From positions 534 to 64,533 of the forward strand of contig JBGQCJ010000007.1 in NCBI GenBank assembly GCA_041495285.1: a stretch of DNA of 64,000 nucleotides. The letters are read 5' to 3'. This stretch comes from Verrucomicrobiia bacterium (GTDB taxonomy: Bacteria > Verrucomicrobiota > Verrucomicrobiia > Palsa-1439). The translations under genes were made by a program, and so were the position numbers. Shown here one piece after another: positions 3,200 to 64,000 of the stretch (positions within the stretch are counted from its first letter, which is position 1; the number at the start of each line of letters is the position of its first letter). Under the pieces are notes generated by a model. The model was not told the origin of the DNA. It made no database searches and was given only the letters and a program-made list of their open reading frames with translations.

Positions 3200-6100
3200 T
3201 TATGGCAGGACTTTTACTTTGTAATACTTGCGCGTGCCGGCAACCGATGAATCAGTATAACTGGTCGTGGCTCCAGCGGACGGGATGGGGCTGCCGTTGA
3301 GGGGCGTTGCTCCGAAGCCTGCTGCCAGGTCGGTGGTTGCGTATACGTTGTAGCTCTTGCCGGCTGCGCTCGTCCACGTGATCAGGTAACCGCCGCCGCT
3401 TGGCGCGATGCTGATGATGTGAAAATACGACGAGCTGTCTTTCGGATGCGTGCCGGCAATATATTCCTGCATGTTGGTCATGCCGTCGCCGTCGGGATCG
3501 CCGTTGGCGCCGTTGGCACCGGTCGGGTCATTGGGGTTGAGGCCGTGATCAATTTCCCACTGGTTGGGCAGACCATCGCCATCGTCATCGCCGTTCGGAT
3601 CGTAGGACCGCACGGCGCTCAACTCCAGAGCCAGGCTGAAGACTTGGCTTGTGCCCTGCAATTCAATCTGCTGTGTCTGCGCTTGATTGCGCATGTTGAT
3701 GGCGAAGATGTTGCCGCTGCCGTCGTCGGTGGCGCCAGCGTTGTAGTTGACGTTGCTGTGGCCGGCATCGGAATACCCAATTGATGCAGTTGCCACGGCA
3801 AGGGAGTTGGAATTGATGACCGTCACCTTGCCGCCGGCGGTTGCCGGGCCTTGCAGGCTGGTTTGGCCGAAGAAGAGCAGATTAAGCAGGTCAGGTGACA
3901 AGCCGTGCCGGACTTTCAACTGTTGCACCGGACTGGCGAGGGTGTAACCGGCTTCGAGCTTTGTCGAGTCCGTGCCGAGCGTGATGGTCTTGACGATCTT
4001 GCCATCGGAGCTGGTGAACTGCCAGCCGGTGCCGGTCGGCGCCGGCGACGCGGTGTAGAGGTCGTTGACGTACTGCGTGGTGCCGAAACCCGACGGCGTG
4101 TTGGTGACGGCGAACCAATCTTTGAACGCCGATGTCCGGTAGGCAACCACGGTGCTGCCGCTGAAGCTTACGTCGCCTTCGCGCTCGTCCTCGAACTCCG
4201 GCGTGCTGACGAGGTTGCCGACAATTTGATAGGCGTTGCTCGTCACGGTGTCGCGCGCGAACGCGGCGATCAACCGGCCGCCGATGCGTTCGAAGACGGC
4301 GTAGATGCGGTTGTTGGACAAGATGTACTCATTCTCGCCGTCGTGATCCACGTCTTGCGTGCCGTCGGCAACGGGCGAGGTAGACGGATTCGATGCCGCC
4401 CACGCGGCGGCGTGCGCGACGATGCTCGCCTGCCGGGTGGCGCGAGCCGCCGGCTTGAGGGCGAACTGAGCCAAGGAATCGAAAGACGCATCCGGTGACT
4501 TGTACTGGCCGGTGGAGAAGCGGTCGTAACCGCCATTGTCCTCGTTGTGGAACGCGGTCTCGAAGATGCCGTTGAGGTACACGAGCTTCGCGAGATTGCT
4601 GAGCGTACCGGACGCAGCTTGCACGTTCGCCCACGCGGACGCAAGGATGGTGCCGTTGGTCAATACGTGGCCGAGTTTCCAGGTCGCGTTGGTGACGTTG
4701 GGACGCAGGATCGGGAACTTGTTGAAGAAACTCTCCTCTTGCGCGCTGCCGTAATACCAATTGTCGTAGTTGGTCTCGCTGGCGTGCCGGACAAAGTCCT
4801 TGGATTGCATGTTGAAGTTGGCGGAGCCGCGATCAATCACGGTCGGGATATCGCCGCCCGGGCCGTTGATGGTGCCGTCATTGTTGATGTCCACCTGGCC
4901 GGCGGCAAATTTGTCGAGTGTGACGACCTTGATCCACGGATGGTTGGCGATCCAGCGCAGATTCAGATTGAACGTGTCCGGGTTACGCTTCGTGCCGTCC
5001 ACGCCACCGGCGGTCTCCCAGTTGTCGCCGAGAACGACGATTTGATCCCGGTTGCCGCTGAGCGCTTTGCGGATGAGCAGTTCACGCAGTGCGATGCTCG
5101 CGCCGAGGTCATTATTCAGGTACATCTGGTCGGACGCGCCGCTGATGAGGAACGCGCGCATATTGTTGAACTTGTTGATCCGGTAGCCGTCGTCGCTGAG
5201 CGCGGCACCGCGACCGTTGAACGTGCCGTAGAGTTGCTCGCCCCACCACCACAGATGCACCATCTGATCGAGGATGGTGAAGTTGTGTCCGCTGTTGGCG
5301 GCCAAATCGCTCAACGTCTTGCCGTCGGCGACGCGCTCGGCCAGATAGACCGGCGAGTTGGCGTTGACGGAGTTGTTGCCGTACACGGTGCGCATGATGT
5401 CGTCCTGCAACTGGATGCCGGCGCGGTTCACGGAGCCGGTAAAGCACGGCGCGACGTGATCGGCAAACATGCCGGATACGAGCGCGACCTGACCAGAGGC
5501 GACCATCGAAGCGATGCGTTGGTTGAACTTCGGTCCATCGCGCGATCCGGTGGGGTCGAGGGACGGATCACTCTTCGCCCACTGCAACGCCGAGATGAGC
5601 GAGCCGCTCAAGTGCAGGTTCAGCGACAGCTTGAAAACCTGAGCCGATTCGAGAGCGCGATAGTAGCCGGTCGGATTGTCGCCGGGGTCGAGCGAGCCGA
5701 CGATGTTGGTCGGCGTGCGTGATACCGCGTTGGAAACGAGGCCTTGGATGATGCTGGCCGGCAGAATGGATTGGTTGCCGTGCAACAGAACCGCCAGTTT
5801 GACGACGTTGGGCCGGTTGGTCACGCTGACGATGTTGTTGTTCGCGTTGTAGGCGCTCAGATTGATCGGGTTCTGATTGACCGTCGTGAACCAGTAGTGG
5901 AGCGTGTCGTTGGGCGGTGTCGGCGTGTCGCTTTCGGGAATGTCGTCATCGTAAATCGTGTCGGTAAAGTCGGAGCCGGACTTCGGCGTATCGCCGGCGC
6001 CGGGGCCGCCGCTGACGCAACTGTTGCAGGTGCCGTCGCGCGTCGTGGCCACTTGGAAATACAACGGCGACGAACCGTTCCAGCCAGCATCCGTGAGAGC

Positions 6101-9100
6101 TTTGCGGCTGATGGCAATCTCGCACGCATCAAGGTCGGAGCGGTAGTAACTGCCGAGGAACCCGCAATCGCCCGTGGTGCATCCCGGTGTATAGCCGCGA
6201 GTTTGGTAGGCGTCCAGCGTGGTGTCAACGCTCTGCCGCTTCACGTAGACGTGACCATTGTTTGCATCGTAAGCGGCCACGACCACCTTCCAGCCCATCT
6301 CGGTTTTTGTGTCCACTTCGTCGGGAATCGTGATGTTGGCGGTGGCCGGGTCGCCGGGAATGCCGAAGCTGATGATCACATAGATGTCCAGATGACCTTG
6401 TTCGGCTTGATATTGCAGGTCGTGGAAATCAACGCGGAAGTAATACTTGCCGTCCGCTCCTCCATCGCGCGCGTAGAACGCGAGGATGTCGCGCGACCAG
6501 TCGTAGCCGTCGTTCCACGGATACACGTCACGGCCGCGCTTGAGCGAGCCGGCACCGTCGTACTCATCGAGCGCCTTCAGGTCGTCCACCGTCCAATCCT
6601 GAAACTCCTCGTTCCACGTGACGCCGCCGGTCGTGCCGATGACGGGGCCGGCGCCGATGTTGATCGAGTTGGCTACTGGTGGCGGTATATCGTCGCGTAC
6701 TTGTGGGTCGGTGCGATTGTTGAACTCCTGCAAGTTGGTGAAACCGTCGCCATCGGGGTCGCCGTTCGCGCCGTTGGTGGTGTTGGTGATGATGGCGCCG
6801 GTGTGCATGTTGGTGTGGCCGATGATGCCGTCGTCCCATGGGTCGAGACCGTGTGCGGCCTCCCAGCCGTCGGGCAGGCCGTCGCCATCGGTGTCGGGAT
6901 TCAGCGGATCAGTCTCCAGCCAGACGGCGTTCGGGTATTGCGTCCGAAGCGCATCGCGATCGATGGCGCGCGATTTCATGCCGGTAAAGTTGATCGTTGG
7001 CGGGTTGGCGACATAGCCGGTAATGACGCCGCTGCCGTTAATCAGCCCGATGTCCACGCGCCCGTTGTGGTTGGCGTCCTCCGCTCCATCCAGCGCTCCG
7101 TCGCCATCGGTGTCGTTATTGCTTGGATCGGTTTCCAGCCACACGGCGTTGGGGAACTGCGAGATGATGGTGGTTCGATCATAGCGGGAACTGCCTTTGA
7201 CCGTCGGCGGGTGCGCGATGACATTGGTGACGACGCCGGCCGCGTTGGTCAGGCCAACGTCCATGCGTCCGTTGCGGTTGGCGTCTTCGATGCCGTCCAT
7301 CAGACCGTCAAAGTCTGTGTCGGGACTGTTCGGGTCGGTCACTGTGCCGGCGACAAGGTCGGTGCGCGGCGCGTTCTCGTCGTAGTTCCAGTAGCTGTAA
7401 CCCGGAGGCGGGTTACTGTTTGAGAATTGGCCGTTGTCGGGCTTGGTGTTGTAGCGCGGCGGGTCGGCATCGGCGATGAAGTTCTTGTACCCATCACCAT
7501 TCGTGTCGGCGTTGAGATCCGTGTTCGTGGCGATGCTGCCTTCCAGTCCGAGTTCCAGCGCGTCTGGCAGGCCATCGTTGTCGCTGTCGGGATTGGTCGG
7601 GTCAGTCTTGCCCGTGAAGAAGTAAGCGTGGACTTGTCCATTGCTCCACGACTGGGCTTCGGTGCCCGGCAGCGGGGTCTGCGTCGTCTCGGCGGAATCA
7701 CTCAAGCCGTCGTTATCGTCATCGTCGCTGTTCGGGTCGGTCGGCACGGTCTGATTGAAGACCACGTTGACGATGCGGAACGCCGTGTTCGAGCCGCCGC
7801 CGAGCGCGTCGGCGCGAATCGTGAACGTTCCTTGGAAGAGATTCGTCCAGGGGAAATTCCAACGCTTTGTGGTGCCAACAAAGGTTGTGTCGTTCGACGC
7901 GACGCCACCGGCGAAGGCGTTGGTGGTGATGTTGAAGCTGATGAGCACGTTGGTGACACTGGTGCTGGTCTCGGTGACGATGGTGTAGCTGCGCTCGGCC
8001 GGCACAGCATTGGTTTTGTCGGGCAACGTGATCGTGTACGGCGAGCGGCCCTGTGCGTCGGCGTTGGGCGGCTGGATAATGTCCACCGAGATGCCGGTCA
8101 GCGTGACGTTGACGTCGCTCGAGTCCTGCAGGTGCGTGTTTGAGCCGGTGTCGTCGTAGAAGAGCTCGATGTGATGCGGACCGGCGCTCATGCCGCCCCA
8201 GTCATAGCGCAACGCATGGGTGCCGCTACCGCAGGCCGCATCGTTGATGTAATAGAGCGGCGTGCCGTCAGGTTTGCGGCGAGCTTGCACCGACCCGTCA
8301 ATCTTGATGGTGAACTTGTCGATATTGCTATCCAGTGAGCCGTCGAAGCAGGTGACGATGGTGTAAGTGGAGTTCTGATCGAGCGAGATGTTGCGCCGGT
8401 CGTTGTTGAAGCAGTCAAGGTCAGGGCACCGCACCTCGAACACCAGCGCGGGCGCCGAACAATCTATCGTGCGCGTGATTTCTTTGACGCGATTGGTGAA
8501 GGCAGCGCTTGTCAGACCCTTGAGTCTAATTTTGATGGTCGCACTGCCGGTGCTGGGGATTCCGAGATAGCTGAACCGGTATTCGCGCGGGAAATTCGGG
8601 TACAGACCGCTGAGCGAGGGCAGGGGCGATACCTCCGTCGCCTTGGCGAAGGCCGGCAAGCCGTTGGTCAGACCATTGCCGAAGGCAGGATTATCGTTGC
8701 CGGCTTCGCCATCAATGATGTTGTACTCGACCTCCGTGACGTTCGGGTCGGCGCGCACGACGATGCCGTAGGATTTGCTGAAGAACGCGGTTTCGCCCGC
8801 TGCGGGGAAGGCGATGGCACCGTCCGGCAACGACGGGTCGTAGTAGAACGTCTGCAGGAACGTGTTGAAGACGCTGGACTTGCCGTCGCGCGGCAGAAAC
8901 GCGCGCGCCCGCACGATGTGGAAGCCGGGTTCGAGTCCGACCGTTGTCGAGTTGGTGTTCAGGTCGTCATGCAACCAGACTCGCACAGATTGCGGATTGA
9001 AATTGGTGATCGCCGCCTGCCGGAGCGCGTAATATTTCGATTGATCGGAGTTGGAAATCGTGGACGCGCCGCGTTTGAAGAGCGCGATTTTGTATTTAAC

Positions 9101-11956
9101 GGTACCGCTCGATTGCGCCGGGATCGTTGCCTTCCACCAATCCACGGTGCCGGTATCACTGCCGCCGGCGGCGCTGGTGTGATCGAACTGCAACGCGATG
9201 ACCTGAGTGGTTGTACCGGCTTTCGGCTGGCCGAATGCGCCTTCAGGATTCGTGCCGTCGGTGCTGTAGTAAACCGTGCCGGTATTGATTCCGAATTGGT
9301 AGCCGACCTTAACCCAAACGGTCACTGCATCGCTTGCGGTTGGGTTGAGCGGAACGCGTTGTGTCGCCGGGCCGCCGGTGACGCTGTCGGCCGGGTTGTG
9401 GTAAACCCAATTGGCGGTCTGGCCGTTGTACGCAAGGCCACCGCCGTTACCGGTCGCAATGGAGCTGCCGCCGCCGATGGTGTAGGCGTACGTTTCCGCG
9501 CCGAGCGAGACAACCGTGTCGTTGGCGATATTGGTGGCGGCGAATTTTTCCGGGCCGTTCAGGAATTGAAACTTCGTGTCCTCGTAGCCGAGGAACATGT
9601 CGTAGGTGAAGCCGGGCCGATTGTCGCGTCCGTCCACGAACCCGGTGGCGTTGTTGGTCCAGAGTTTGCCGAGTCCCATCTGGCTGTTGAGGTCGGTGCC
9701 GCCGTCGAGTTTGACGAGGACGTTGGTGGCCGAGCCGTCGGTGCGCACGAGGATGTCGAACAGATTGCTGTTGGTGATGACCGGGATGTCGATGGCGTAA
9801 GTGAGATTCGAGATGTTGCTGCCGATAATGACGTTGCCGTTGATGTCCACGCTGCCGCGCATCTTGAAGGGAAACAGCGGATTGTAGTTCACATCGCCGT
9901 CGGGGCCGGTCGAGCGGCGCACCGTCATGCGCGGGACTTCCACGCCGTTTTGGACGAACGTGATGGCGTTGTTCGACATCACGCCGCTGGCCGGACGGCT
10001 GGCCTGCGGACCTTCGTAGGCGTAAATCAGATAGCTGCCACGCGGGATCTTGAACTCGATCGCGCCGCCACCGGGCGGAACGAACTGTCCGCCGACGTAC
10101 ACGAGACGGTCAACAGGGTTTGAGGCGTTGATGCTGGCCTGTGCGGCGGCTAAGTTTAGCGTTACGTTGCGCACCAGAATCCTCGGGCAAGCGCGCTCTT
10201 TGTAAGGCGAATCGGCCATCTGCACGAGGATCGAACCGGGTGGGTAGCTGACCGCCAAGCCGACGCCGCGACTTGTCGGCGCGCCGTAACACGTGCTCGG
10301 CATACCGGAATCGTTCTGCGCGACGCCGTCGTCAAACGCGACATCGCCGCAGGTGTCGCCGCCGGAACTCGTGCAAAAGTTGTCGTTCATGACGAACAAC
10401 GCGACGTTCTGATCGATTTGGCTTCCGGCCTCGCGGTTGTCACGGCGTTCGAAAGCGACGATGTCGTTATCGCTCCAACGGGCTGTACTCTGGCCACGCG
10501 CGAGTTGATTGTGCAGGTAGGCGATGTCCGGCATCTTGTTGTCGCCGAACTCGCCGAGGTAGGAGGCGTTGGCGTTGCGCGGGAATTCGCCGCCGCATTG
10601 CGTGCAGTTGGCGGATTTGCGCCAGCCGTCGGAGTAGATCACCGGGATGCCTTCGCGCATGAACATGTACGCCAGTTCGATGGGGCGATGGCTTGGGTCG
10701 TAGAAACCGTTGTCATGACTCTGCACGAACATGACGCGGTTGGCCGCGTTGAAGTGCCCGTAGCCGTCATAGCTGCTCTGGTCGACGCCTTGGAGACCCG
10801 CGCTTGGATTTCCAATGAGGTGCGTGAAGCCCTCGAACGTGTTGATGAGCGGAGCGTCCACGAGCCGCATGCCGCGGCTTGTGTACTCGTCGAAGCTCGG
10901 CGGCTCGCCGAGATGTTCGCCGAAGATCAATGCGTCGTTGCGAATCTTCTCCGCATCGAAGCAGCTATCGCGGTTATTGGGAGCGTTGGTGCTGGCGGCG
11001 GTGGACTCGTTGTAGCCGCTGATCGGATTATTGTAACCGTAACCGTGCACCCAGTCGTACATGACTTGGATGGCCCCGGCGTAGCCATTGGGTGTGGCGG
11101 AATCGTCGCCGAAAAAACTGCTGGGCACATGTTTGACGGCGTCCAGCCGCAGGCCGTCGCACCTCGATTCGTTCATGAACCAGATTGCGGCGCGAATGAG
11201 ATAGGCGGCCGTATCCTCGACGACCGGGACGCCGTTGGTGCCGTTAAACGGATGCCACGAGCCGCTGCCGGGATCGATCTGCGGCAGGCTTGTATCCATA
11301 TAATACTCGGGGTTGTTCGGCTGGCGGATGAAGGACAGCTTGGGGCCGGTGCTGGCCAAAGTCGGACCGAAGTTCTCATTGACGTTGACCTCCTGCGCGA
11401 GGTCGCTCAGGTGGGAGAAGTTGATGTGCTGCACATCCCATGTGTTTTGCCAACTACCGCCACCGTCGTTCATGTCCGTCCATTGCCGGTAAAAACCGTC
11501 GGCAGTCGTTCGCAGATGGAAATCTTCTGGCAGCAGACCGGGGTAAACGGTGATCGGCGTGTTTGCATCGTAGCCCGGCACGTCGTAACTCCGGTGGTTC
11601 ATGATGTTGTCGAAATAGACGCGGATGCCGAACCGGTGGGCCATCTGCACCATGCGAATCAACTCGTCCTTCGTGCCGTACCGGGTGGCGATGGTGCCTT
11701 TTTGGTCTTTGTCGCCGAGGTCAAACGGATCGACGAGATCGTAACCGGCGGAGAATTGGCTGTTGGCCTTGGACGGGGGCGGTAGCCAGAGCGCGGTGTA
11801 GCCGGCCTCAGCAAGCTCCGGCATTTTCTGGCTGATTTCGTTCCAACTTTGGTTGAAGAGCTGGAGTACAGCCTCACCCCGGGCTTGCGCCAGGTACGCA
11901 AGCCCGAACGTGAGGCCGGCAAGAGCCTTCCGCATGCTCGCTTTACACAATTGCAC
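3200..11956 (-). CDS. giant (2918 aa) secreted multidomain alpha-glucan hydrolase: N-terminal GH13 catalytic domain, internal GH57-like region, Asp-rich TSP3-like repeats, shared C-terminal domain
   Basis: Largest ORF in the window. The likely start is GTG at 11956, preceded by AAGGTGAAGGGGAG. Signal-peptide-like N-terminus (MRKALAGLTFGLAYLAQA). GH13 regions I-IV are present: FDNIMNH, GLRLDAVKH, FGEHLG, FVQSHDN. An internal segment is paralogous to the 12059..15493 protein (WNEEFQDW...AFYARDGGADGKYYFRVDF; LNLHLSGSLISALQWA; YLAERV), interpreted as a beta-sandwich domain plus GH57-like region. Repeated DxDxDGxxDxxE motifs: NPDTDGDGLPDGWE, DPDGDGFTNLQEF, DPDGDGMTNMQEY. The C-terminus ends ...TSYTDSSVAGTRKYYKVKVLP*, matching the family tail. 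Confidence 0.85.
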   Translation of the reverse strand: MQLCKASMRKALAGLTFGLAYLAQARGEAVLQLFNQSWNEISQKMPELAEAGYTALWLPPPSKANSQFSAGYDLVDPFDLGDKDQKGTIATRYGTKDELIRMVQMAHRFGIRVYFDNIMNHRSYDVPGYDANTPITVYPGLLPEDFHLRTTADGFYRQWTDMNDGGGSWQNTWDVQHINFSHLSDLAQEVNVNENFGPTLASTGPKLSFIRQPNNPEYYMDTSLPQIDPGSGSWHPFNGTNGVPVVEDTAAYLIRAAIWFMNESRCDGLRLDAVKHVPSSFFGDDSATPNGYAGAIQVMYDWVHGYGYNNPISGYNESTAASTNAPNNRDSCFDAEKIRNDALIFGEHLGEPPSFDEYTSRGMRLVDAPLINTFEGFTHLIGNPSAGLQGVDQSSYDGYGHFNAANRVMFVQSHDNGFYDPSHRPIELAYMFMREGIPVIYSDGWRKSANCTQCGGEFPRNANASYLGEFGDNKMPDIAYLHNQLARGQSTARWSDNDIVAFERRDNREAGSQIDQNVALFVMNDNFCTSSGGDTCGDVAFDDGVAQNDSGMPSTCYGAPTSRGVGLAVSYPPGSILVQMADSPYKERACPRILVRNVTLNLAAAQASINASNPVDRLVYVGGQFVPPGGGAIEFKIPRGSYLIYAYEGPQASRPASGVMSNNAITFVQNGVEVPRMTVRRSTGPDGDVNYNPLFPFKMRGSVDINGNVIIGSNISNLTYAIDIPVITNSNLFDILVRTDGSATNVLVKLDGGTDLNSQMGLGKLWTNNATGFVDGRDNRPGFTYDMFLGYEDTKFQFLNGPEKFAATNIANDTVVSLGAETYAYTIGGGSSIATGNGGGLAYNGQTANWVYHNPADSVTGGPATQRVPLNPTASDAVTVWVKVGYQFGINTGTVYYSTDGTNPEGAFGQPKAGTTTQVIALQFDHTSAAGGSDTGTVDWWKATIPAQSSGTVKYKIALFKRGASTISNSDQSKYYALRQAAITNFNPQSVRVWLHDDLNTNSTTVGLEPGFHIVRARAFLPRDGKSSVFNTFLQTFYYDPSLPDGAIAFPAAGETAFFSKSYGIVVRADPNVTEVEYNIIDGEAGNDNPAFGNGLTNGLPAFAKATEVSPLPSLSGLYPNFPREYRFSYLGIPSTGSATIKIRLKGLTSAAFTNRVKEITRTIDCSAPALVFEVRCPDLDCFNNDRRNISLDQNSTYTIVTCFDGSLDSNIDKFTIKIDGSVQARRKPDGTPLYYINDAACGSGTHALRYDWGGMSAGPHHIELFYDDTGSNTHLQDSSDVNVTLTGISVDIIQPPNADAQGRSPYTITLPDKTNAVPAERSYTIVTETSTSVTNVLISFNITTNAFAGGVASNDTTFVGTTKRWNFPWTNLFQGTFTIRADALGGGSNTAFRIVNVVFNQTVPTDPNSDDDDNDGLSDSAETTQTPLPGTEAQSWSNGQVHAYFFTGKTDPTNPDSDNDGLPDALELGLEGSIATNTDLNADTNGDGYKNFIADADPPRYNTKPDNGQFSNSNPPPGYSYWNYDENAPRTDLVAGTVTDPNSPDTDFDGLMDGIEDANRNGRMDVGLTNAAGVVTNVIAHPPTVKGSSRYDRTTIISQFPNAVWLETDPSNNDTDGDGALDGAEDANHNGRVDIGLINGSGVITGYVANPPTINFTGMKSRAIDRDALRTQYPNAVWLETDPLNPDTDGDGLPDGWEAAHGLDPWDDGIIGHTNMHTGAIITNTTNGANGDPDGDGFTNLQEFNNRTDPQVRDDIPPPVANSINIGAGPVIGTTGGVTWNEEFQDWTVDDLKALDEYDGAGSLKRGRDVYPWNDGYDWSRDILAFYARDGGADGKYYFRVDFHDLQYQAEQGHLDIYVIISFGIPGDPATANITIPDEVDTKTEMGWKVVVAAYDANNGHVYVKRQSVDTTLDAYQTRGYTPGCTTGDCGFLGSYYRSDLDACEIAISRKALTDAGWNGSSPLYFQVATTRDGTCNSCVSGGPGAGDTPKSGSDFTDTIYDDDIPESDTPTPPNDTLHYWFTTVNQNPINLSAYNANNNIVSVTNRPNVVKLAVLLHGNQSILPASIIQGLVSNAVSRTPTNIVGSLDPGDNPTGYYRALESAQVFKLSLNLHLSGSLISALQWAKSDPSLDPTGSRDGPKFNQRIASMVASGQVALVSGMFADHVAPCFTGSVNRAGIQLQDDIMRTVYGNNSVNANSPVYLAERVADGKTLSDLAANSGHNFTILDQMVHLWWWGEQLYGTFNGRGAALSDDGYRINKFNNMRAFLISGASDQMYLNNDLGASIALRELLIRKALSGNRDQIVVLGDNWETAGGVDGTKRNPDTFNLNLRWIANHPWIKVVTLDKFAAGQVDINNDGTINGPGGDIPTVIDRGSANFNMQSKDFVRHASETNYDNWYYGSAQEESFFNKFPILRPNVTNATWKLGHVLTNGTILASAWANVQAASGTLSNLAKLVYLNGIFETAFHNEDNGGYDRFSTGQYKSPDASFDSLAQFALKPAARATRQASIVAHAAAWAASNPSTSPVADGTQDVDHDGENEYILSNNRIYAVFERIGGRLIAAFARDTVTSNAYQIVGNLVSTPEFEDEREGDVSFSGSTVVAYRTSAFKDWFAVTNTPSGFGTTQYVNDLYTASPAPTGTGWQFTSSDGKIVKTITLGTDSTKLEAGYTLASPVQQLKVRHGLSPDLLNLLFFGQTSLQGPATAGGKVTVINSNSLAVATASIGYSDAGHSNVNYNAGATDDGSGNIFAINMRNQAQTQQIELQGTSQVFSLALELSAVRSYDPNGDDDGDGLPNQWEIDHGLNPNDPTGANGANGDPDGDGMTNMQEYIAGTHPKDSSSYFHIISIAPSGGGYLITWTSAAGKSYNVYATTDLAAGFGATPLNGSPIPSAGATTSYTDSSVAGTRKYYKVKVLP

Positions 11957-12058
11957 TTCTCCCCTTCACCTTTAGACCCATCGTCAGCACTTCGCGCTCC
12001 AAAATAGCATCTTCACGCCACTTTGTCGAACCGCGTGGCGGCTGCTTCCCTATGTTTT

Positions 12059-15000
12059 TCAAGGGGTTGGAACAATTCCGACCCGGTAGTACCGGTGCGC
12101 GAGACCGAACGTGCCGGTCATAGAATTGGTGCTGGAGGTCGTCGCCAGAATACTGTCCGGCACGAGTAATTGCCACGAGTTGCTGGAATCGTCTTTGAAA
12201 TACACTTGGTATCGTTTGGTCGGCACGCAGCTCCAAGCAATCGAGAGTCCTCCGCCGGCCACCGGCGTGATACTCGTGATCTTGAAAACCGAATTCGCGT
12301 CCTTGGGATTCGTGCCGGCAAGGGATTCCTGCAAATTCGTCATACCGTCGCCATCGTCGTCGGCATTCGGGTCGCCGCCGGTTGCGGTGCCCCAATACTG
12401 ATACTCGAATCCATCCGGCATTCCGTCGCCGTCGATGTCCGGGTTCTCCGGCTGCGGATCCAACACGTTGGCCAAACCATCACCATCGATGTCGTTTGCG
12501 CTGGCAGGACTGAACGCCAGCCACGTCGTGAAATTGGTCGCGCCGCCGGAGTTAAACACTTCGACCTGCTCGACCAACGGCAAGCCGCGGTTCTGGTAAC
12601 CGGCTTGGTCGAGATTGCTGACGATGTTGAGCGTGTTGTTGGTGCCGCGTACGGCGTAGGCCGCACCGCCAACTTTGTTCGTGAGGCCGTAGAAGTACAA
12701 TGAATCGGTGTGGACAATGAGATTGGTGTCGCCGTGGTGCAACAAGTCCAGTTGATTTGGGCCAAGACCGTGGCGGATGTAGAGATTGCCAACGCCGGTG
12801 CCGAGCGTGTATTGCGCCTGCACCGCATCGCGACCGCTCGGCAAAGTAACCCGTTTGCGGATCTGGCCGTCGTTGGAAACGAATTCCCAGAAGTTCGAGC
12901 CTTGCACGGGCGAAGTGGGTGCCGCGTAATCCATGTCCACATAGCGATTGTCGCCGGGCGTGCTGGCGTACCGGTCCTTGAAAGCCGAACAACGGAGATT
13001 GTCGGCCTCTTCGGCATCGGTTTCCTCGGCGGGGTTGGCCACCGGTGCGCCGATGACTTGGTAAGCGTCTTGAGTTGCCGGGTCGTACACGAATGCGTAG
13101 ATGAGCCGCGCGCCCCAACGTTTGAAGCAAAGATAAACCTTGTTGTTCTTGAGCACGTACGAATTCCACACGTCGTCGTCGAGATTCGCGGCGACAGCAA
13201 CGGTGGTCGAACCTTGCACGCCGTTCTTTACGTCCTGCACCCACTGCGCGGCGTCCGCGAGGATGCCGAGCGTGCGCACGTGACCATGCAGCCGCAGCGC
13301 CCAGCCGGAAGTGTTGTCGTAGGTTGTGTCGGCTTGCGAGAACGTGCAGCCGTCGTTCACGTCGAAGTTCACCTGATAGTTGCGCGACTTGTAGTTGTCG
13401 GGGTTGGCGTCTTCGTCGTGCCACGCGGTCTCGTAAATCATCGCGGAGTACGCCCACTCGGCCAGCGTTTTGAGATTACCGGCGGGCATCCCGGCCACCT
13501 TGTCCCACGAGTCGCGAATCAAAGTGCCCGGTGTGTTCATGTCGCCGTAGACTTTCGCAGTCTGGACAACGCCGCTCGGGTCGACGCGGGGATGACGTTG
13601 AGAGAAATTCTCCTCCTGACCGGAGCCGTAGTACCAATGGTCGTAATCCTGTTCCGAGGCGCGTTTGAGCCACTCGTAGGTCTGCATGCTCAAGTTGGTC
13701 TGTGTGCCGTGATCCTCGTAAATCCAGCTCGGATCGCTCTGCGCCCACGTGACGACGTCTTTGAGATTCACGACCTGAATCCATTGGTGGTTGGCGGCCC
13801 AGCGAATCGTCTGATGCCATTGGTCGGCGTTGTTGTTCGGGGTGGGCGAGGCGAACGAATTGCCGGCGTACGCTTCCCAATCGTCAAACACCACGGTGAT
13901 TTGCGAGGGATCGGACGACAGAGCCTTATCGAGCAGCGTGTAGCGTGTGTCGTTCTGCATGCCGCCGTCATTGGGCCCGAATTTTTCCTGATCTTCCCGG
14001 TCGTTGATGAAGAAGCACAGGACGCCATTGATCTTGTGTAGCTTGTGATGGTAAGCGCGGTCGTTGCAGCCGCCGAAGCCGGCCCAGCGCTCGTTGCCGG
14101 TGGCGCAGCAATTGTTGAAAAAGTTCGTCTCGTCCGAATAGAACCACCAGTGCAGGTGCGAGACCTCGTCAAGGTAAGTGGCTGTGTAGCCACCGGCCTT
14201 GATGTCCTCGATCGGCTTGCCCTTGAGCGGGCCGTTTGGATTGGCGTGTGCCCAGCCGGTATCCGAGTGAATGACGCGCTCGGGCACGTGCATGACCTTC
14301 ATGTCGTTGGTGGTCAGCCCGAACACTGATTGTGCCAAGTCGTTGAACGCCGCGATCGAGCGCTGGTTCACATCGCCTTCGAAGTACGGCATGATGTGCT
14401 CGGCGTAGGTGCCACCGATGAGCGAGCCGGTACCGCTGTTGATGAAATTCTTGAGTCGCTGCAAAAAAGTCGGGCCATCGCGTTCGCCGAACGCGTAGTT
14501 CGGGTCGCTCGGGTCCTGCCGGGCCCACAAGAGCGAACTGATGAGCGAGCCGCTCAAGTGCATGTTCAGCGGGACATGGAGCATCTCATGTGTGTCGATG
14601 GTGCGGATGAAACCGGGATACAAATTCAAATCCGACCGCTTGGTGTAGATGTGCCCCTGCGTCTGCGCGCGTGTGCCAAGTGATTGATTCGCATGGGCAA
14701 TCGCCGCGTACTTCGCGCGATTGACGGTCGCGGTGGACGAAATCGACCCGTAGAGACGGCCAGTGCCGCCGCCCAAATCGCGTACGAGTCCGCCGCAGCC
14801 CGGGCAGACGATGGCGTCCACGATGTCGCTGCCGGGGATCTCGCCGGGGCCGCCGTTGGTGCCGTCGCGCGCCGTGAACACCTGGAAATGCAGCGGGCTA
14901 ACACCATCCCAGCCCGCATTGATCAGCACGGAGCGTTTGATGCCAAATTCCATGCTGTCCAAATCGCTGCGCCAGTAGGAAATGCCGCCGTTCTGGGACG

Positions 15001-15493
15001 CCACGAAGTTGTTGGTCACGCCACTGCCATTCCAGTTCGTGTCGTAGATTGAGCCGTGGTTGGTGTCGTACACGGCCACGCAAATCCGCCACGGGTTGTC
15101 GGTCTGCGTGTCGGTGAAATCTGGGAACCAAACCTGTCCGTTAGCATCGCCGGGTTGAGTGGCAATGGCCACGTACACGTCGACGCCACCGTTTTCCGCG
15201 CCAAGGAGCAAGTCGAAGAAGTCCACGCGAAAGTAGTAGTTGCCGTCGGCGCCGCCGTCGTGCGCGTAGAACGCGATGAGGTCGCAGCCGGGATCGTTCG
15301 CGTCGTTGAACTTATACTCGTCGTTATTGACGTCGAGGGCGCGCACATCGCTGGCCGACCAGTCTTGAAATTCCTCGTACCACGTCGTGCCGCGCTTGTC
15401 GGTGCCGATGGCCGGGCCCGGGCCGATGGTGATCGCGCGGGTGTTCAGCGCGCAAGCCAACGTGAGGGCGGCGAATACTGCCGGGCGAATCAC
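12059..15493 (-). CDS. secreted GH57-like glycoside hydrolase (about 1144 aa) with TSP3-like repeats and the shared C-terminal domain
   Basis: ORF 12059..15607. I place the start at GTG 15493, giving a good signal peptide MIRPAVFAALTLACALNTRA and removing a 111-nt overlap with the upstream gene, whose stop TAA ends at 15496. The N-terminal region is paralogous to the internal region of the 2918-aa protein. GH57-like motifs: MHLSGSLISSLLWA, HVPERV (WxPE-like), FDDWEAY. DIDGDGMPDGFE and DDDGDGMTNLQES repeats are present. The C-terminus ends ...TGTFGLAHRYYRVGIVPTP*. Confidence 0.8.
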   Translation of the reverse strand: MIRPAVFAALTLACALNTRAITIGPGPAIGTDKRGTTWYEEFQDWSASDVRALDVNNDEYKFNDANDPGCDLIAFYAHDGGADGNYYFRVDFFDLLLGAENGGVDVYVAIATQPGDANGQVWFPDFTDTQTDNPWRICVAVYDTNHGSIYDTNWNGSGVTNNFVASQNGGISYWRSDLDSMEFGIKRSVLINAGWDGVSPLHFQVFTARDGTNGGPGEIPGSDIVDAIVCPGCGGLVRDLGGGTGRLYGSISSTATVNRAKYAAIAHANQSLGTRAQTQGHIYTKRSDLNLYPGFIRTIDTHEMLHVPLNMHLSGSLISSLLWARQDPSDPNYAFGERDGPTFLQRLKNFINSGTGSLIGGTYAEHIMPYFEGDVNQRSIAAFNDLAQSVFGLTTNDMKVMHVPERVIHSDTGWAHANPNGPLKGKPIEDIKAGGYTATYLDEVSHLHWWFYSDETNFFNNCCATGNERWAGFGGCNDRAYHHKLHKINGVLCFFINDREDQEKFGPNDGGMQNDTRYTLLDKALSSDPSQITVVFDDWEAYAGNSFASPTPNNNADQWHQTIRWAANHQWIQVVNLKDVVTWAQSDPSWIYEDHGTQTNLSMQTYEWLKRASEQDYDHWYYGSGQEENFSQRHPRVDPSGVVQTAKVYGDMNTPGTLIRDSWDKVAGMPAGNLKTLAEWAYSAMIYETAWHDEDANPDNYKSRNYQVNFDVNDGCTFSQADTTYDNTSGWALRLHGHVRTLGILADAAQWVQDVKNGVQGSTTVAVAANLDDDVWNSYVLKNNKVYLCFKRWGARLIYAFVYDPATQDAYQVIGAPVANPAEETDAEEADNLRCSAFKDRYASTPGDNRYVDMDYAAPTSPVQGSNFWEFVSNDGQIRKRVTLPSGRDAVQAQYTLGTGVGNLYIRHGLGPNQLDLLHHGDTNLIVHTDSLYFYGLTNKVGGAAYAVRGTNNTLNIVSNLDQAGYQNRGLPLVEQVEVFNSGGATNFTTWLAFSPASANDIDGDGLANVLDPQPENPDIDGDGMPDGFEYQYWGTATGGDPNADDDGDGMTNLQESLAGTNPKDANSVFKITSITPVAGGGLSIAWSCVPTKRYQVYFKDDSSNSWQLLVPDSILATTSSTNSMTGTFGLAHRYYRVGIVPTP

Positions 15494-15495
15494 TT

Positions 15496-18400
15496 TTATG
15501 GGTTCACGCACCTGATCTTGTAGAACCGTTGCGTCCCGGCTGTGTTGTCGGTATGGGACAGGGTGATTTCGCCGGTTTGCGCGGTTTTCTGGATGAGAGA
15601 TTGCCAACCGCCGCCGAGCGAGTCGCAGTACATCACATCATAAGTCTTCCCTGGAACAGATGCCCACGTGATGGTGAACCCGCCGGCGACGGCTGGTTGA
15701 ATCTTCTGAATGACGAAATCTTTCGACGGTTCAAGACGATCGTAGATGCCATTGCCGTCGTTGTCGGTAATGGCAGGGATTGACAGCATGAGAAACTCGT
15801 TGCTTTCGATGTTGCCGTTGCCGTTACCTGCCGGCGCCTGGGCGACTAACGCGCCGTTTGGTGGAGAGTTCGTTGTGTTGTAAGCGGCGGCACAGACGTA
15901 GATGTTCGAGGGCATCGATCCGAACGCTTGGGCGAGATTAATTGTGCCTTCCATATAGCCGGCGTTGGTGGGCGCTTTGGCGAATTGGTTGGATGCGGTC
16001 ACGGCTGAGCCATCGAGGTTCTGCCAGCCGACGTAACCGTTATTGCTCTCACCACTCAGGAATGGCTTGGGACCGCTCGCGGCCATCGTGCCGGCCTTCG
16101 ACCACGTCGGAAACGCCGGTGACATCGGCGAGAGTTGGTCGGTGACGACAATGAAGTGATCGTTCTTGGTGGTGTCTCCGGGATAAATACCGGGCGACCA
16201 AGTGGCGACGTAAAGCATCTGACCGCGCACGGCGGCGTAGATCGTCATGCCGGGATTGCTCTGCAGATAATTCGTCGAATCGACGCTGTTGCCGTCGATG
16301 ACGAACGGCGGACTGAAATTCGGCGGCGGGGGATTGAACGTCGTGGCGCACGCGGACGGGGATGATTCGGCGGAGCTGTCGATGCTGTTCGTGGCGATGA
16401 TGGTGTAGCAGAATTGTGTGCTGGCCGGCAGCCCGATGTCGGAGTACGTGGTGGCCGAGGTCGTCGCGATCTGCGAGCCGGCACGTTTGACGATGTAACC
16501 GGTCGCGCCGCTCGACGCCGTCCACGAGACATTGATCTGGTTTGTCGCCGCGCCGGTCGCCGTGACGTTTTGTGGAGTGCCCGGCGTCGTCGGCGAACCG
16601 CTGGGGCCAACGAAAACATGTTGAATGGGCGAGTTGTAGGTGTTACCGCGGCTGTCGGTGGCACTGACGTAGTAGTCGACGTAGCCGCCCGTCAAGCCGG
16701 TCACTTTCGAGTAGTAGTAGTCCGCGATGTATTGCGGCGTGGAGCTGATGGCGGGCGCGACGGAGCGCTGGGTCATCGCCTGGCGAATCCAGGGCCCGGT
16801 GTTCGGCCCATCGGCGTAAACCTTGAACTGGTCTTGTGTTGGAGCGTAGGAGCCGTTGGAGCGATAGAGGAGGCTGACGTTCGTGATACCGGAAGCGTCG
16901 TAGGCGTATGTCCAAACCCAGAAATCGTTGTTGGCCGGCACGGTGACGTGGTAGCTGTACTGCGCGCCGAAGTTCGTCGTGCCGGGATTCCACGGATGCC
17001 GCTGCGGGATGAACAACGTCGGCGGCGTGTTGTCGAGCGAGGGGTTGCCGGTAACGATGGAGTTCACATTGCGCACGGCGTTGGATTGCGAAACGACGCA
17101 GCGGGCGCACTCGTCGCCGCCGCATCCGAAATATACAAACCCGCTGTCGAGTCCGCCGAGGTAGTAGTGCCAGCCGAGTTCGACCGCGCTCGGTGTCTGG
17201 CTGAAACTTCCCGGATCGCGAATCTGATCAATGCGATTAGTGTAGCCGGTGAGCGTGTTCTGGATTTGCTGCGCGGTCTTGACGCGATTCTCGGTCGCGA
17301 GTTGAACGCGTATCACGTCGGCCTTGCTGCTGGTGCCGACGCTGGGGTCGACGACGTTGACGCTGTTGGAGGTGATGCTCGGCGGCCAGTGCCAGCCGGT
17401 AAACAATGGCGAGCCGAAGTCGCCTCCCGCTTGATTGTTTACCCAGCCACCGTCTTCGACGTGAACGACGTCGTTGGAGTTCGGCGGCCAGTCATTAATG
17501 AATTGCTCGACGGTGGTCGGTTCGTAGCCGGCGGAGTTGGCCTGACCGGCAATGCTGTTGACCTGACTCATGTAATAGGTGAAGCCGCCGCTGAACGCGT
17601 TGTCGCCATCGTGCGCGAGGTAGACGAGGGCGGGCTTGGCAGGATCATTGTGCGCGCTCAGCGTGCCGAGGCTACTGATGTTCCAGGATTGTTCGCTGTC
17701 GAGATAACCGAGCGCCTGTTCGCTGGGAACGAGCATCAACATCGAAGCGGCGCCTGTGGACGGATTCACATACCGGCCGTAGTGCAACTGGTAGGCGAAC
17801 GGCAACGCGGCGGCCGGTTGACAACCGAGATTGTTGACGGAGACGCGTTGGTAGTTGCCGGCGCCTTGCGCTGGATTGATCTGGTCAGCCTTGTTCGGCA
17901 CATCGCAGTTGTCGCCGCTGAACGAGACCGGGTAATCGGAACAGGAGCGGGTCAAGTGAGTGTTGCCGACGACCGACCATTCAATACCGGCTTGTTTCAG
18001 GATCGGAATCATCCGCTCGGTGAAACAGGTCTCGGAAGGAAAATAGCCGCGCGACACCGCTGGACTCGTCGTCCAGAAAATCTCCATCTGTCGGCGGTGA
18101 ATCAGCAACTCCATCAGCAGCGTCTCGTCACTAATCAACGGAGCAAGCGAGTGATGGTAGTTGAAGTTCACGAGATCCATCCGGGGCTGGCTGCCGCTGG
18201 TCGTCCAATTGCGGGCTTGGATGTTCGAGTTGTTCCAGCCCGCGTTGTAACAACCCGAGCCGCCGCAGACGTTATGGCCGACGAGGCTCTGAACATTTTC
18301 AATCAGCGCGCCTGAGTAGCTGACTTGCGCACCGGCGTTGACAAAGTTGGTGACTGTACTGACGGAATCTCGTGGCCGGTATTGATAGGCCGCGATGCGG

Positions 18401-23030: not shown

Positions 23031-23053
23031 CGCCAGCCACATCCAAATTCTCC

Positions 23054-23115
23054 CGTAGGAGCGGCCTCCCGGCCGCGATCGGCCCGGCCCGGTCGCGGCG
23101 TGGACGCCGCTCCTA
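23054..23115. repeat. GC-rich imperfect palindromic element (GTAGGAGCGGC...GCCGCTCCTAC) immediately after the DUF1800 gene; a second copy sharing a 28-bp identical core lies at 48341
   Basis: CCGTAGGAGCGGCCTCCCGGCCGCGATC at 23052-23079 recurs exactly at 48339-48366. The outer arms GTAGGAGCGGC and GCCGCTCCTAC are reverse complements and end in CTACAA, like the 3080 hairpin. Confidence 0.75.
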
Positions 23116-23133
23116 CAACACCAGGACGAAGCC

Positions 23134-25069: not shown

Positions 25070-25135
25070 CAATTCCTCCATCGAAACGGCAGCAGCGTAG
25101 CCCCAAAGGCGGTCGGGCGCAACGCAATTTGCGGC

Positions 25136-28643: not shown

Positions 28644-28745
28644 CGTTTCACATCCGTGCTTGCGTATCCGGCATTCTGCGCGATACTCTGCCCGGCACAT
28701 CAGCGAAAGGCGTTGAACACGAAGTCAACAAACGGAGGCGGGTTC

Positions 28746-32955: not shown

Positions 32956-33295
32956 AGCCTCGTTCCTCCATGGATAAGCTGGTTGTTTGTAGCTGATTTG
33001 GAGTACAACCACAGGTGGTTTGAGGCTACAACGATGCTACCCTGCTGAACAACGGAGTGCTTACCCAAATTGCCCCAGCAGGGGAAACTGCGGACATCTC
33101 GAAAATCGGCTCTCACCTTACTCTGGCCTCGCCATCCCATGACCAAACGCGTCGTGACGCTTCTCCTAAGAAGCAAAGTGTAGTCAAGCGTGTAAGCGAA
33201 AGTCAAGAACAAACCCTCGTCCGTTGAAAAGTTTCTTGAGCCGGCGGTCGCTGAGGCTGTTCTTGCGACAGATCGGACGCGGTTCAACGAGGCGA

Positions 33296-48203: not shown

Positions 48204-48221
48204 GCACGGCCCGACAATTAG

Positions 48222-48344
48222 ACGACCAACTTCGCCACCATCTTCGCTGTCACCAACGTTACCGGCACTAGGACCAGCTACCTCGACGTCGGCGCCGCCA
48301 CGAATAGGCCGAGTTTCTATTATCGGGTGCGATTGGTTCCGTAG
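48222..48344 (+). pseudogene. orphan remnant of the shared C-terminal domain (last ~40 codons, no upstream gene body)
   Basis: An open frame of only 41 codons translates to TTNFATIFAVTNVTGTRTSYLDVGAATNRPSFYYRVRLVP*. This reproduces the family tail (FTNxF..TN...TSTNYLDxGGATNxPxRYYRVRL) 19 nt after the stop of 45126..48203. Confidence 0.65.
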
Positions 48345-56066: not shown

Positions 56067-57380
56067 ATGGGGAAGTTGCCGGGGCCTTGGGTTCGCTGGA
56101 TTGTATGCATCTTGCTGGCGGTGCTGTTTCTAACGGAGACGAAAGCCGAGGAGTTTTCTACCACCAACCGAGACTGCCTCGCGCATTTCTGGGTCGCGGC
56201 TGAGGGCGGTAAGAGACCGGTCACGGTTGTCTCCTTTGGTGATTCGATGGCCGACTCCTACCAGTCGGTCACTTATTCTTTGATTAACTCTCTGGCCGGT
56301 CGTTTGGGTGTTGCCGGGTATTCTCTGAACAATTACGCCAACGCAACCGAGTATCGCCTGACCAATGGTGCACAGTACGTCGTAGGTCCAACACAATTCT
56401 GGTTCACAGACCATTATCGGCTGCCAAGCGGCGGCGGATTGTGGTGGGAAGCGCAGAATTCTCCCGGCGGCGTTTACTCGGATGCGGTGGGTGTGTTCTG
56501 GGTCTCGCAACCGCAAGGCGGCTGGTTCACGCTGTCCGTCTCGACCGCAGGTCAGGCGTGGACGCCGGTCGTAATGCTCAGCGGCAACGGGAGTACACCG
56601 GAAGGTCATTTCGCAAGAGTCTTCTTGGCGCCTGACTTCCATAGGGTCCGCGTGGATGGCGTTTCGGGTATCAACTACATCATCGGACCCCAACTGCTGT
56701 CACAGAAGACGGGCGGTGTGCACGTTGTGTTCATGGACAAGGGCGGAATTGGTCTGGACTCGGTGACAAACATCCCGATTTCCATACGCCAGCCGATTCT
56801 GGCGGCGTTGAACCCCGACCTGATCGTCTGGCACATGAAGGAAGACGGTTCTGTGGCGACCAGCAACCGGATGCTGGAATGCGAGAACTGGTGGTCCAAC
56901 GCCGCGCCGGCCTGTGATATCGCCTACATTGGCACACCCTATACGGCGTATGATACCAATACCACGACTACGATCGATCAGAACCGGCTCGTGCGGAACA
57001 TCGCTGTTACCAAACACCGGACGTATGAGGATCTGATGCAACCCAGCGTGAGTTACAATTGGCTGTATGCCCAAGGATACATGGTGGACGCAGTCCACCT
57101 CAATGTCACCGGAGGGAAGTATCTGGCTAACATCATGTGGAACGATTTGGGGTTCTTTGCCCTCAATGTTCCTCGGACATTGACCCTGAAGTTCTCGGGG
57201 CAGAAACTGACAGCCGAATACCCCACGGTCACCGGGGTTTACTACGCGCTGGAGATGTCCACAAATTGGGTTAACTGGTTGCCGATCGTCAGCGCACCGG
57301 GCAGCGGCCAGAAGTTGTCTACCAACGTCCCGGCGAGTTCTCGGAATGCTTTCTTCCGACTCAGGCTCTCACCCAACTGA
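56067..57380 (+). CDS. secreted SGNH/GDSL-family hydrolase with a C-terminal domain related to the shared CTD (437 aa)
   Basis: Signal peptide MGKLPGPWVRWIVCILLAVLFLTETKA. GDS motif block VTVVSFGDSMADSY. The C-terminal ~80 aa (TLKFSGQKLTAEYPTVTGVYYALEMSTNWVNWLPIVSAPGSGQKLSTNVPASSRNAFFRLRLSPN*) matches the family tail pattern (..IxW......G..........TN......FFRLRL). Confidence 0.75.
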   Translation: MGKLPGPWVRWIVCILLAVLFLTETKAEEFSTTNRDCLAHFWVAAEGGKRPVTVVSFGDSMADSYQSVTYSLINSLAGRLGVAGYSLNNYANATEYRLTNGAQYVVGPTQFWFTDHYRLPSGGGLWWEAQNSPGGVYSDAVGVFWVSQPQGGWFTLSVSTAGQAWTPVVMLSGNGSTPEGHFARVFLAPDFHRVRVDGVSGINYIIGPQLLSQKTGGVHVVFMDKGGIGLDSVTNIPISIRQPILAALNPDLIVWHMKEDGSVATSNRMLECENWWSNAAPACDIAYIGTPYTAYDTNTTTTIDQNRLVRNIAVTKHRTYEDLMQPSVSYNWLYAQGYMVDAVHLNVTGGKYLANIMWNDLGFFALNVPRTLTLKFSGQKLTAEYPTVTGVYYALEMSTNWVNWLPIVSAPGSGQKLSTNVPASSRNAFFRLRLSPN

Positions 57381-63021: not shown

Positions 63022-63026
63022 ACGGG

Positions 63027-63766: not shown

Positions 63767-63787
63767 TTGCGTTACGAGCGAATGCTC

Positions 63788-64000
63788 CTATGGGCAGTTC
63801 GGCGTCCCGGATGACAACCGGATGCGGTAGTACCGCGACGGTACGTTGGTCGCACCGCCGACATCCACCCAGTTGGTGGTGACGGCGCCGCTGCCGGACA
63901 CGAACAACGTGGCGAGACTAATGTAGTTGTTTGTGTAGTTGCCGCTGATGATCGGGTTCGCCAGTTGCACGACGTTGGTCGAACCGCCGACGGTCAGCCA
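63788..64000 (-). CDS. C-terminal end of a further CTD-family protein; the gene continues beyond the window
   Basis: The minus-strand frame is open to the window edge. The tail ...VTTNWVDVGGATNVPSRYYRIRLSSGTPNCP* carries the family signature (TN..DVGGATN.P.RYYRIRL). Confidence 0.7.
   Translation of the reverse strand, partial: WLTVGGSTNVVQLANPIISGNYTNNYISLATLFVSGSGAVTTNWVDVGGATNVPSRYYRIRLSSGTPNCP

Follow-up and report, generated by a model that had tools for sequence, protein, structure and literature searches.

Why should exported-looking proteins whose N-terminal parts have nothing in common end in the same short stretch of sequence? The question is raised by 64,000 nucleotides of DNA from a Verrucomicrobiia bacterium (lineage Palsa-1439; contig JBGQCJ010000007.1, positions 534 to 64,533), here called the window, in which several very different proteins share a domain of 68–82 amino acids (aa) that we call the tail. 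A sequence-only reading of the window had noticed this sharing and proposed that the tail is an undescribed sorting or attachment tag. We report here that the tail is a widely distributed family of the Verrucomicrobiota and, judging by profile comparisons, a divergent member of the fibronectin type III (Fn3)-like superfamily that lacks the last strand of the fold. Together with the thrombospondin type 3 (TSP3) repeats that usually precede it, it may form a calcium-stiffened module for non-covalent retention or interaction at the cell surface, a function to which we tentatively assign a probability of about 40%.

Ten copies in the window and a family beyond it

The tails were located from translations of the open reading frames (ORFs) and by a hidden Markov model (HMM) scan of all six frames with a profile built from 8 copies; both bear out the positions at which the sequence-only reading had placed them. 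The scan recovered exactly ten sites, namely 7 C-terminal copies, 1 internal copy, 1 copy cut by the window end, and 1 remnant. The two copies that lay outside the profile had expectation values (E) of 6e-15 (63791..64000) and 3.5e-10 (48222..48341), and the next-best fragment, which is unrelated, had an E of 0.79. When profiles were built with one copy left out each time, 8 of 9 copies were significant (E 5e-9 to 1.5e-27), and the tail of ORF 56067..57380 was not recovered (E 1.6). With a profile made from foreign proteins only, all 10 copies rank above noise, that same copy marginally (independent E-value (iE) of 0.007 versus 0.16 for the first noise match). The 56067..57380 tail is thus a probable, weakly supported member of the family, as judged from its sequence.

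The copies fall into two subtypes that are 21–29% identical to each other. Subtype B comprises five copies (in the ORFs at 39572, 42807, 49546, and 63788, and internally in the one at 45126) and the remnant. Subtype A, the more divergent, comprises the copies of the ORFs at 3200, 12059, 15496, and 56067, with the pattern ITW.s..GK.Y.V...W...FY+V. The consensus originally quoted for all of them, IRITW.T.GG.TNRVL...TSTNYLD.GGATN.P.RYYRVRL, describes the subtype B copies and the remnant well and fails for the four subtype A copies.

Outside the window, 1.84 billion cluster representatives were searched exhaustively with HMMER; 5,671 clusters matched at E≤1e-3, of which 1,053 still did so at E≤1e-10. 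The looser set takes in some canonical Fn3 repeat proteins (e.g. matches P0093 and P0146), and the actual size of the family therefore falls somewhere between the two counts. A survey of species-representative genomes, scanned with subtype B patterns and therefore biased toward that subtype, yielded 40 loci, 39 of them from uncultured Verrucomicrobiia metagenome-assembled genomes (MAGs) recovered from peat, bog, palsa, and soil, with several loci per genome on different contigs. Names attached to other matches include Verrucomicrobiae, Limisphaerales, and Chthoniobacteraceae, nearly all named matches being uncultured Verrucomicrobiota (of Limisphaerales and Chthoniobacterales types), and one Joint Genome Institute (JGI) metagenome contig matches the window itself. 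The tail is, then, a widely distributed, lineage-specific family; the alternative that it arose by duplication confined to this locus fails against thousands of protein clusters and dispersed loci in many Verrucomicrobiia MAGs. The lone genome match outside the phylum is a 54-aa fragment without a proper end in an Acidobacteriaceae MAG (locus L041, 4941..5102 of CAWAEU010000062.1), which might be explained by mis-binning of its contig, by a transfer, or as what remains of a former copy.

Among the top 150 matches of the cluster search, the domain occupies the extreme C terminus in 86 of 87 single-copy proteins, and the last copy is terminal in 56 of 62 multi-copy proteins (142/149 together); in the related loci, 56 of 59 copies are terminal. 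The protein ends are strikingly uniform (...TN.P.RYYRVRLVP-stop). Tandem arrays consist of 2–8 units of ~72 aa joined by short Pro-rich linkers (eight units in P0060, four in P0064), and their internal units also end in ...FYRV.L.P before the linker. An internal tail like that of ORF 45126..48203 recurs, in the same architecture, in a homologue from another sample (P0101). Both the arrays and the internal copies indicate that the tail unit is self-contained. We considered whether the ...LVP-stop end might be a recognition signal that requires a free carboxylate and rejected this idea, because internal array units end in the same motif before a linker; the conserved end is best read from the sequences as a fold boundary.

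These observations bear directly on the sorting half of the original proposal. In principle, the tail could be a folded secretion or sorting signal that is recognized by a dedicated outer-membrane translocon or a sortase-like enzyme and then removed, as with the C-terminal domains (CTDs) of the type IX secretion system (T9SS). Its strong C-terminal bias, its near-invariant end, the diversity of its cargo, and its alternation with PEP-CTERM (see below) would all suit such a role, and in size and beta-sandwich nature it resembles the T9SS CTDs of Bacteroidota. Tandem and internal copies are hard to reconcile with a removable signal, however, as is an end that internal units share, as a fold boundary would be shared; no T9SS-type HMM matches the tail, and neither the window nor the 40 related loci contain candidate machinery. 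This mechanism seems very unlikely to us. The statement that the tail is not a T9SS CTD agrees with these results, and so does the statement that it is not an exosortase- or sortase-type signal, as the ...YYRVRLVP ends contain no PEP motif, transmembrane helix, or basic cluster. Given the arrays and the conserved internal copy, a structural or binding module is likelier than a tag that is recognized and cleaved, and the tail is unlikely to be a sorting tag of the signal-like, cleaved kind. Attachment remains plausible on the same data; sorting is the weaker half of the proposal.

A third, longer tail subtype (~95 aa, ending ...RYYRVRVLLP) adjoins subtype B genes in related loci (L005, L009, L017, L022, L024, and L027; e.g. 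L009 1458..3242). The copy at L022 5881..10047 has apparently lost its proper end, possibly by frameshift.

A fibronectin III-like fold without its last strand

As the sequence-only reading had suspected, the tail stands outside the named families. No model of Pfam-A (2025) or NCBIfam (2026) matched a tail, whether it was searched by itself, with the threshold relaxed to E≤10, or as part of its whole protein, and we found no description of the tail in the literature. The Pfam fn3 model (PF00041) likewise matches no tail at E≤10; its sole match among the window proteins is internal (aa 698–772 of ORF 15496..18669) and below the cut-off. A profile search of the PDB finds the Fn3-like protein 3mpc of Clostridium thermocellum at E 8.8e-4. 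This structure is the Fn3 module of CtXyl5A (5g56), an Fn3 spacer of a cellulosomal xylanase, and is the closest solved relative. Against canonical bacterial Fn3 units, taken from the weaker matches of the cluster search, hhalign gives a probability of 92% and pairs tail positions 7–78 of 81 with Fn3 positions 9–68 of 88, leaving the last 20 Fn3 residues, the G-strand region, unmatched. The relationship must be distant, since a Foldseek comparison of the tail model with the PDB returned nothing significant.

What the tail keeps of the Fn3 fold are strands A to F, the Trp of strand B (ITW), and the Tyr motif of strand F (YYRV). Modeled alone with AlphaFold2 (AF2), the tail of ORF 39572..42796 forms a compact beta-sandwich (predicted local distance difference test (pLDDT) 83.8) whose last strand spans residues 74–80 of 81, and the proteins stop 3–5 residues past YYRV. 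From the alignments, all of which break off at the Fn3 F strand, and the position of the last modeled strand (read from DSSP strings of the models), we infer that nothing in the tail corresponds to the FG loop or the G strand. By these sequence comparisons, the tail is a divergent, G-strand-less member of the Fn3-like beta-sandwich superfamily; neither Pfam nor NCBIfam includes it, and it represents a new family within a known type of module. Its description as an undescribed domain therefore holds in that no model exists for it and does not hold in the sense of a domain without relatives. Near-invariant within the family are the loop motifs GG.TN and GGATN.P and both Arg residues of YYRVRL.

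Kinship with a spacer raises the possibility that the tail is itself a generic, lineage-expanded Fn3- or immunoglobulin (Ig)-like spacer or stability domain with no common partner, whose terminal position reflects the growth of gene families by duplication and domain shuffling. Comparable spacers are familiar from the Fn3 “X modules” of clostridial and actinobacterial hydrolases and the Big repeats of adhesins. Several features fit this picture: the nearest solved relative, the ~72-aa tandem units with their Pro-rich linkers, the conserved internal copy, the frequent arrangement of tail genes in co-directional arrays of two to four paralogues, the lack of a partner in the related loci, and a conservation only slightly above that of the cargo. 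But a domain that is the last element in ~95% of its carriers has nothing to space. Moreover, one tail subtype occurs on cargo as unrelated as beta-helices and an FG-GAP propeller, tails alternate with PEP-CTERM in one family, and the near-invariant GG.TN and GGATN.P loops, together with the two surface Arg residues of YYRVRL, suggest a binding surface. We consider the spacer a serious but doubtful candidate.

The TSP3 repeats and the C-terminal cassette

The sequence-only reading had also described Asp-rich, TSP3-like repeats before most tails. Motifs of the form D.D.DG..[DN]..E do lie directly upstream of the tail in 6 of the 8 full-length proteins, in one of them (ORF 15496..18669) in degenerate form, and are absent in those at 49546 and 56067. 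The Pfam model TSP3_bac (PF18884) matches 6 of 8 window proteins, 4 of them above its 25-bit cut-off, and 29 of 78 foreign carriers (E≤1e-4); the matches in the window fall in the linker region rather than in the tail. The usual C-terminal cassette thus consists of two TSP3-type, putatively calcium-binding repeats followed by the tail. Modeled as one piece (150 aa from ORF 39572..42796), repeats and tail form a single confident unit (pLDDT 89.1, predicted template modeling score 0.76).

Dockerin_1 (PF00404) has no match at E≤0.01 in any window carrier. The largest carrier, of 2918 aa, scores 62.7 bits against NF042425, the Amuc_1099 family, whose cut-off is 50 bits; the match is confined to profile positions ~104–170 of 321, is due to the TSP3 repeats, and does not involve the tail. 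Amuc_1099, CglD, and MtsD were accordingly rejected as relatives, as the TSP3 repeats alone match them. Amuc_1099 is itself uncharacterized (PMC5332112, PMC13174399). In addition to its cassette, the 2918-aa protein contains a long mid-protein TSP3 run, six motifs at aa 1412–1744, with a CglD-like match.

Cargo and the C-terminal slot

The claim that unrelated cargo sits under one tail is well founded, with GH13 (glycoside hydrolase family 13), GH57-like, beta-helix, and FG-GAP proteins among the window carriers. The individual labels are of unequal quality. GH13 and FG-GAP (E 2e-87) stand; GH57 is weak (E 3.5e-5); the beta-helix cargo has a weak TIGR04393 match; and the label of SGNH hydrolase for ORF 56067..57380 is not upheld, there being no Pfam match for the whole protein and only a GDS-type motif visible. 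Matches to SMODS and DUF5749, both in the FG-GAP protein, and to exosortase V were discarded as spurious because they contain no significant individual stretch.

Across 78 carriers we counted 51 Pfam families, foremost PKD, Ig, cadherin-like, RCC1, BACON, and beta-helix, with some carbohydrate-active enzyme (CAZyme) domains. Adhesin-like proteins (beta-helix, PKD, Ig, cadherin-like) thus make up most of the carriers, and some hydrolases occur as well. The enzymes among them suggest another role, that of a glycan or substrate binder resembling a carbohydrate-binding module (CBM), which would target enzymes and adhesins to environmental polysaccharide or to the cell's own exopolysaccharide or lipopolysaccharide. 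The beta-sandwich fold, the conserved loops with their Thr/Asn-rich and aromatic motifs, and the presence of the tail on GH13 and GH57-like enzymes here and beside amylase, BACON, Laminin_G, and glucodextranase-B domains elsewhere are in keeping with such a binder. The tail matches no Pfam CBM model, however, and CAZymes are a minority of its carriers, most being beta-helix, PKD, or Ig proteins of adhesin-like type. We judge this role quite unlikely as a separate explanation; were the ligand the cell's own surface glycan, it would merge with the surface retention module that we favor.

An indication of the slot that the tail fills comes from ORF 42807..45125, whose cargo was the one with the weak TIGR04393 match and whose JGI name is “T5SS/PEP-CTERM-associated repeat protein”. 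According to the NCBI definition, this beta-helix cargo family is associated with the barrels of type V secretion systems (T5SS, autotransporters) or with PEP-CTERM. Among 115 homologues of its beta-helix N-domain, 109 end in the tail, 2 in PEP-CTERM, and 4 are truncated, and none has both ends. Such alternation implies that the tail fills the anchor slot of these proteins. Within the family, mean pairwise identity is 55% for the TSP3 repeats, 48.5% for the tail, and 42% for the cargo. One further homologue-level observation concerns P0245, which has an S1-P1 nuclease domain (PF02265) and whose recorded sequence lacks the tail end; a separate S1/P1 nuclease is encoded in the window at 28656..29705.

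A proposed surface retention or interaction module

We therefore return to the calcium-stiffened, non-covalent surface module as the favored function of the cassette. The carriers would be exported by the Sec pathway, after which the cassette would form the cell-proximal end of the protein. There it could bind, non-covalently, a common component of the cell envelope or a scaffold, with the calcium-loaded TSP3 repeats serving as a stiff spacer. In architecture, the cassette would thus stand in for the PEP-CTERM anchor or autotransporter barrel of sister proteins.

Besides the fold of the tail, the model of the cassette, and the wide distribution described above, four features speak for this model. 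The first is the terminal position of the tail, and the second the diversity of its cargo. Third, the tail occupies a slot equivalent to that of PEP-CTERM, on proteins whose N termini resemble cleavable signal peptides (by inspection, in all 8 full-length carriers of the window) and in which no other anchor is apparent. Fourth, conservation within the beta-helix family is somewhat higher in the cassette than in the cargo. Other features weigh against it. Arrays of 2–8 units, as in P0060 and P0064, suit a plain stalk or spacer equally; the tail (48.5%) is only slightly better conserved than the cargo (42%); slot equivalence rests on two PEP-CTERM counter-examples; and the 56067 copy is a marginal family member. 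In addition, neither the window nor the 40 related loci (of 10 kb) yielded a receptor or other binding partner for the tail, or an enzyme that would process it. The neighborhoods of those loci share paralogous tail genes and nothing else that is conserved, in a search dominated by shadow ORFs and paralogues. For the second, distinct system that had been envisaged beside the exosortase, neither the window nor these loci offered candidate machinery.

A more specific version of surface attachment can nevertheless be formulated, although we think it unlikely. Here the TSP3 and G-less Fn3 cassette would be the cargo-side half of an undescribed surface attachment system of Verrucomicrobiota, and its open F-strand edge would be completed in trans. 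The edge left uncovered by the missing G strand, with its two invariant Arg residues, could dock by donor-strand complementation or beta-augmentation onto a strand supplied by an outer-membrane or scaffold protein. If this were true, one receptor would serve as the socket for dozens of adhesins and enzymes in each cell, giving a functional analogue of dockerin–cohesin or T9SS CTD anchoring in a phylum without a known system of that kind.

The individual copies in the window

Three of the subtype A tails belong to an alpha-glucan-related cluster at 16..18669, which comprises a cytoplasmic-looking GH13 protein (16..1764), a GNAT protein, and three proteins that all carry the tail. The first of these, the 2918-aa GH13-type protein (ORF 3200..11956, minus strand), has its tail at 3203..3424 as its C-terminal 74 aa (aa 2845–2918; leave-one-out E 1.9e-14), with TSP3 motifs just upstream at aa 2790 and aa 2820. 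The second is a protein of 1144 aa (ORF 12059..15493, minus strand) whose N-terminal domain has no Pfam match; three TSP3 motifs precede its C-terminal tail at 12062..12286 (leave-one-out E 5.4e-9; iE 6e-11 with the foreign-only profile). The third, the GH57-like protein of 1057 aa (ORF 15496..18669, minus strand), ends in a tail at 15499..15717 (leave-one-out E 2.9e-10), upstream of which lies its single degenerate TSP3-like motif (DNDGNGIYDRLE).

On the plus strand, the beta-helix protein of ORF 39572..42796 ends in a cassette at 42395..42793, made up of two TSP3 repeats (aa 942–980) and a subtype B tail at 42551..42793 (aa 994–1074) that ends YYRIRLIP-stop. The cassette of the neighboring T5SS/PEP-CTERM-associated-repeat beta-helix protein, ORF 42807..45125, lies at 44727..45122, with TSP3 repeats at aa 641 and 668 and a subtype B tail at 44883..45122. 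The internal cassette, at 46893..47291, belongs to the 1025-aa ORF 45126..48203 on the same strand, its TSP3 repeats at aa 590 and 618 being followed by a subtype B tail at 47046..47291 (aa 641–722). Some 300 aa come after this tail, including a weak DUF4350/GldG/ABC_transp_aux-like region. In the remnant, at 48222..48341 on the plus strand, only the C-terminal half of the subtype B domain is left (TTNFATIFAVTNVTGTRTSYLDVGAATNRPSFYYRVRLVP-stop; profile positions 38–78); it lies outside any long ORF and 19 nucleotides past the stop of ORF 45126..48203. Taken together, the ORF and the half-tail (45126..48344, plus strand) look like the outcome of an old insertion or fusion by which the original C terminus was displaced.

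Of the remaining copies, the subtype B tail of the FG-GAP repeat protein (ORF 49546..51303) is C-terminal at 51070..51300 on the plus strand (leave-one-out E 6.2e-17). The probable, divergent tail of ORF 56067..57380, which ends FFRLRLSPN-stop, lies at 57174..57377 on the same strand. At the far edge, 63791..64000 on the minus strand holds the subtype B tail cut by the window end; it finishes in ...RYYRIRLSSGTPNCP-stop, and its gene starts beyond base 64000.

Neighboring genes

A PEP-CTERM protein in the same window had been noted, and one is indeed present at 32170..33012 on the minus strand. It matches DUF7901 (E 3e-51) and has a classic end (IPEPSAFLLVVLGGLGVATFTRRRTARR), the sole genuine PEP-CTERM end seen. 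Its presence shows that this genome has the exosortase route as well as tail-bearing proteins. On the plus strand, 24842..25990 encodes an AAA_22 ATPase whose score against TIGR03015 (“XrtA/PEP-CTERM system-associated ATPase”) is 311.5 bits, slightly short of the cut-off of 324.5, and the overlapping or adjacent 25888..26517 on the same strand has a weak T2SSB (GspB-like) domain; their sequences suggest an exosortase-associated ExeA/GspB-like pair. Apart from the PEP-CTERM protein and the XrtA-system ATPase-like gene, the rest of the window has ordinary chromosomal content, and no T9SS components are found among the annotated genes of its 64 kb. Adjacent DUF1800 (E 1e-126) and DUF1501 (E 9e-32) genes lie at 21582..24438 on the plus strand, a pairing that is common in Planctomycetes and Verrucomicrobia and so in line with the lineage of this DNA.

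In five of the related loci (L007, L008, L018, L021, and L022; e.g. L022 529..1431), a protein with a prepilin-type N-terminal methylation motif (FTLIELLVVIAIIGILAAMLLP, H-X9-DG-like) is encoded upstream of tail genes. Prepilin-type genes are very numerous in Verrucomicrobiota, and for that reason the recurrence, which may be coincidental, was not counted as evidence.

Comparison with known systems

Verrucomicrobiota of soil and peat are abundant, mostly uncultured degraders of polysaccharide, and to our knowledge the surface display of their adhesins and enzymes is poorly understood beyond PEP-CTERM and exosortase. Because no Pfam or NCBIfam model covers the tail, the common C-terminal end of more than 1,000 clusters (E≤1e-10; up to 5,671 at E≤1e-3) is currently unannotated. 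A defined family would improve annotation and make it easy to flag proteins that these organisms export or display on their surface, and the tail HMM and the small, well-modeled domain offer a handle on a possible second route of surface attachment beside exosortase. Should the tail prove a mere spacer, its value would be limited to annotation; its interest is moderate unless a dedicated partner exists.

Against this background, the tail can be set beside five kinds of known element. At most it would work as a dockerin or a T9SS CTD does, being a terminal module common to many different cargo proteins. First, bacterial Fn3 domains, including that of CtXyl5A (3mpc, 5g56), are ~90–100 aa long and usually internal linkers, whereas the tail is 68–82 aa long and almost always terminal. 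Further, the tail has no FG loop or G strand, is undetected by Pfam fn3, is coupled to TSP3 repeats, and is restricted to Verrucomicrobiota. Second, the Amuc_1099 family pilus-like system protein (NF042425), CglD, and MtsD have TSP3 stretches in common with the carriers, but the tail is not matched. Third, the cassette recalls dockerin, which is also C-terminal, also has a duplicated calcium-binding D.D.DG loop-plus-helix motif, and also occurs on many secreted proteins as a candidate for scaffold assembly. The calcium-binding part of the cassette, however, matches TSP3_bac and not Dockerin, a beta-sandwich then follows, and no cohesin-like partner was found.

Fourth, the T9SS CTDs of Bacteroidota (Por_Secre_tail, PF18962/TIGR04183; type B CHU_C, PF13585) are, like the tail, beta-sandwiches of ~70–100 aa at the extreme C terminus of many unrelated exported proteins within one lineage. 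The tail differs in having no match to their HMMs and in occurring in arrays of up to 8 units and as an internal copy, and Verrucomicrobiota are not known to have a T9SS. Finally, the PEP-CTERM/exosortase signal takes the same C-terminal slot as the tail on the same beta-helix cargo family, and both are present in this genome. Yet the two are different in kind: the tail has no PEP motif, transmembrane helix, or basic cluster and is a folded domain rather than a short signal.

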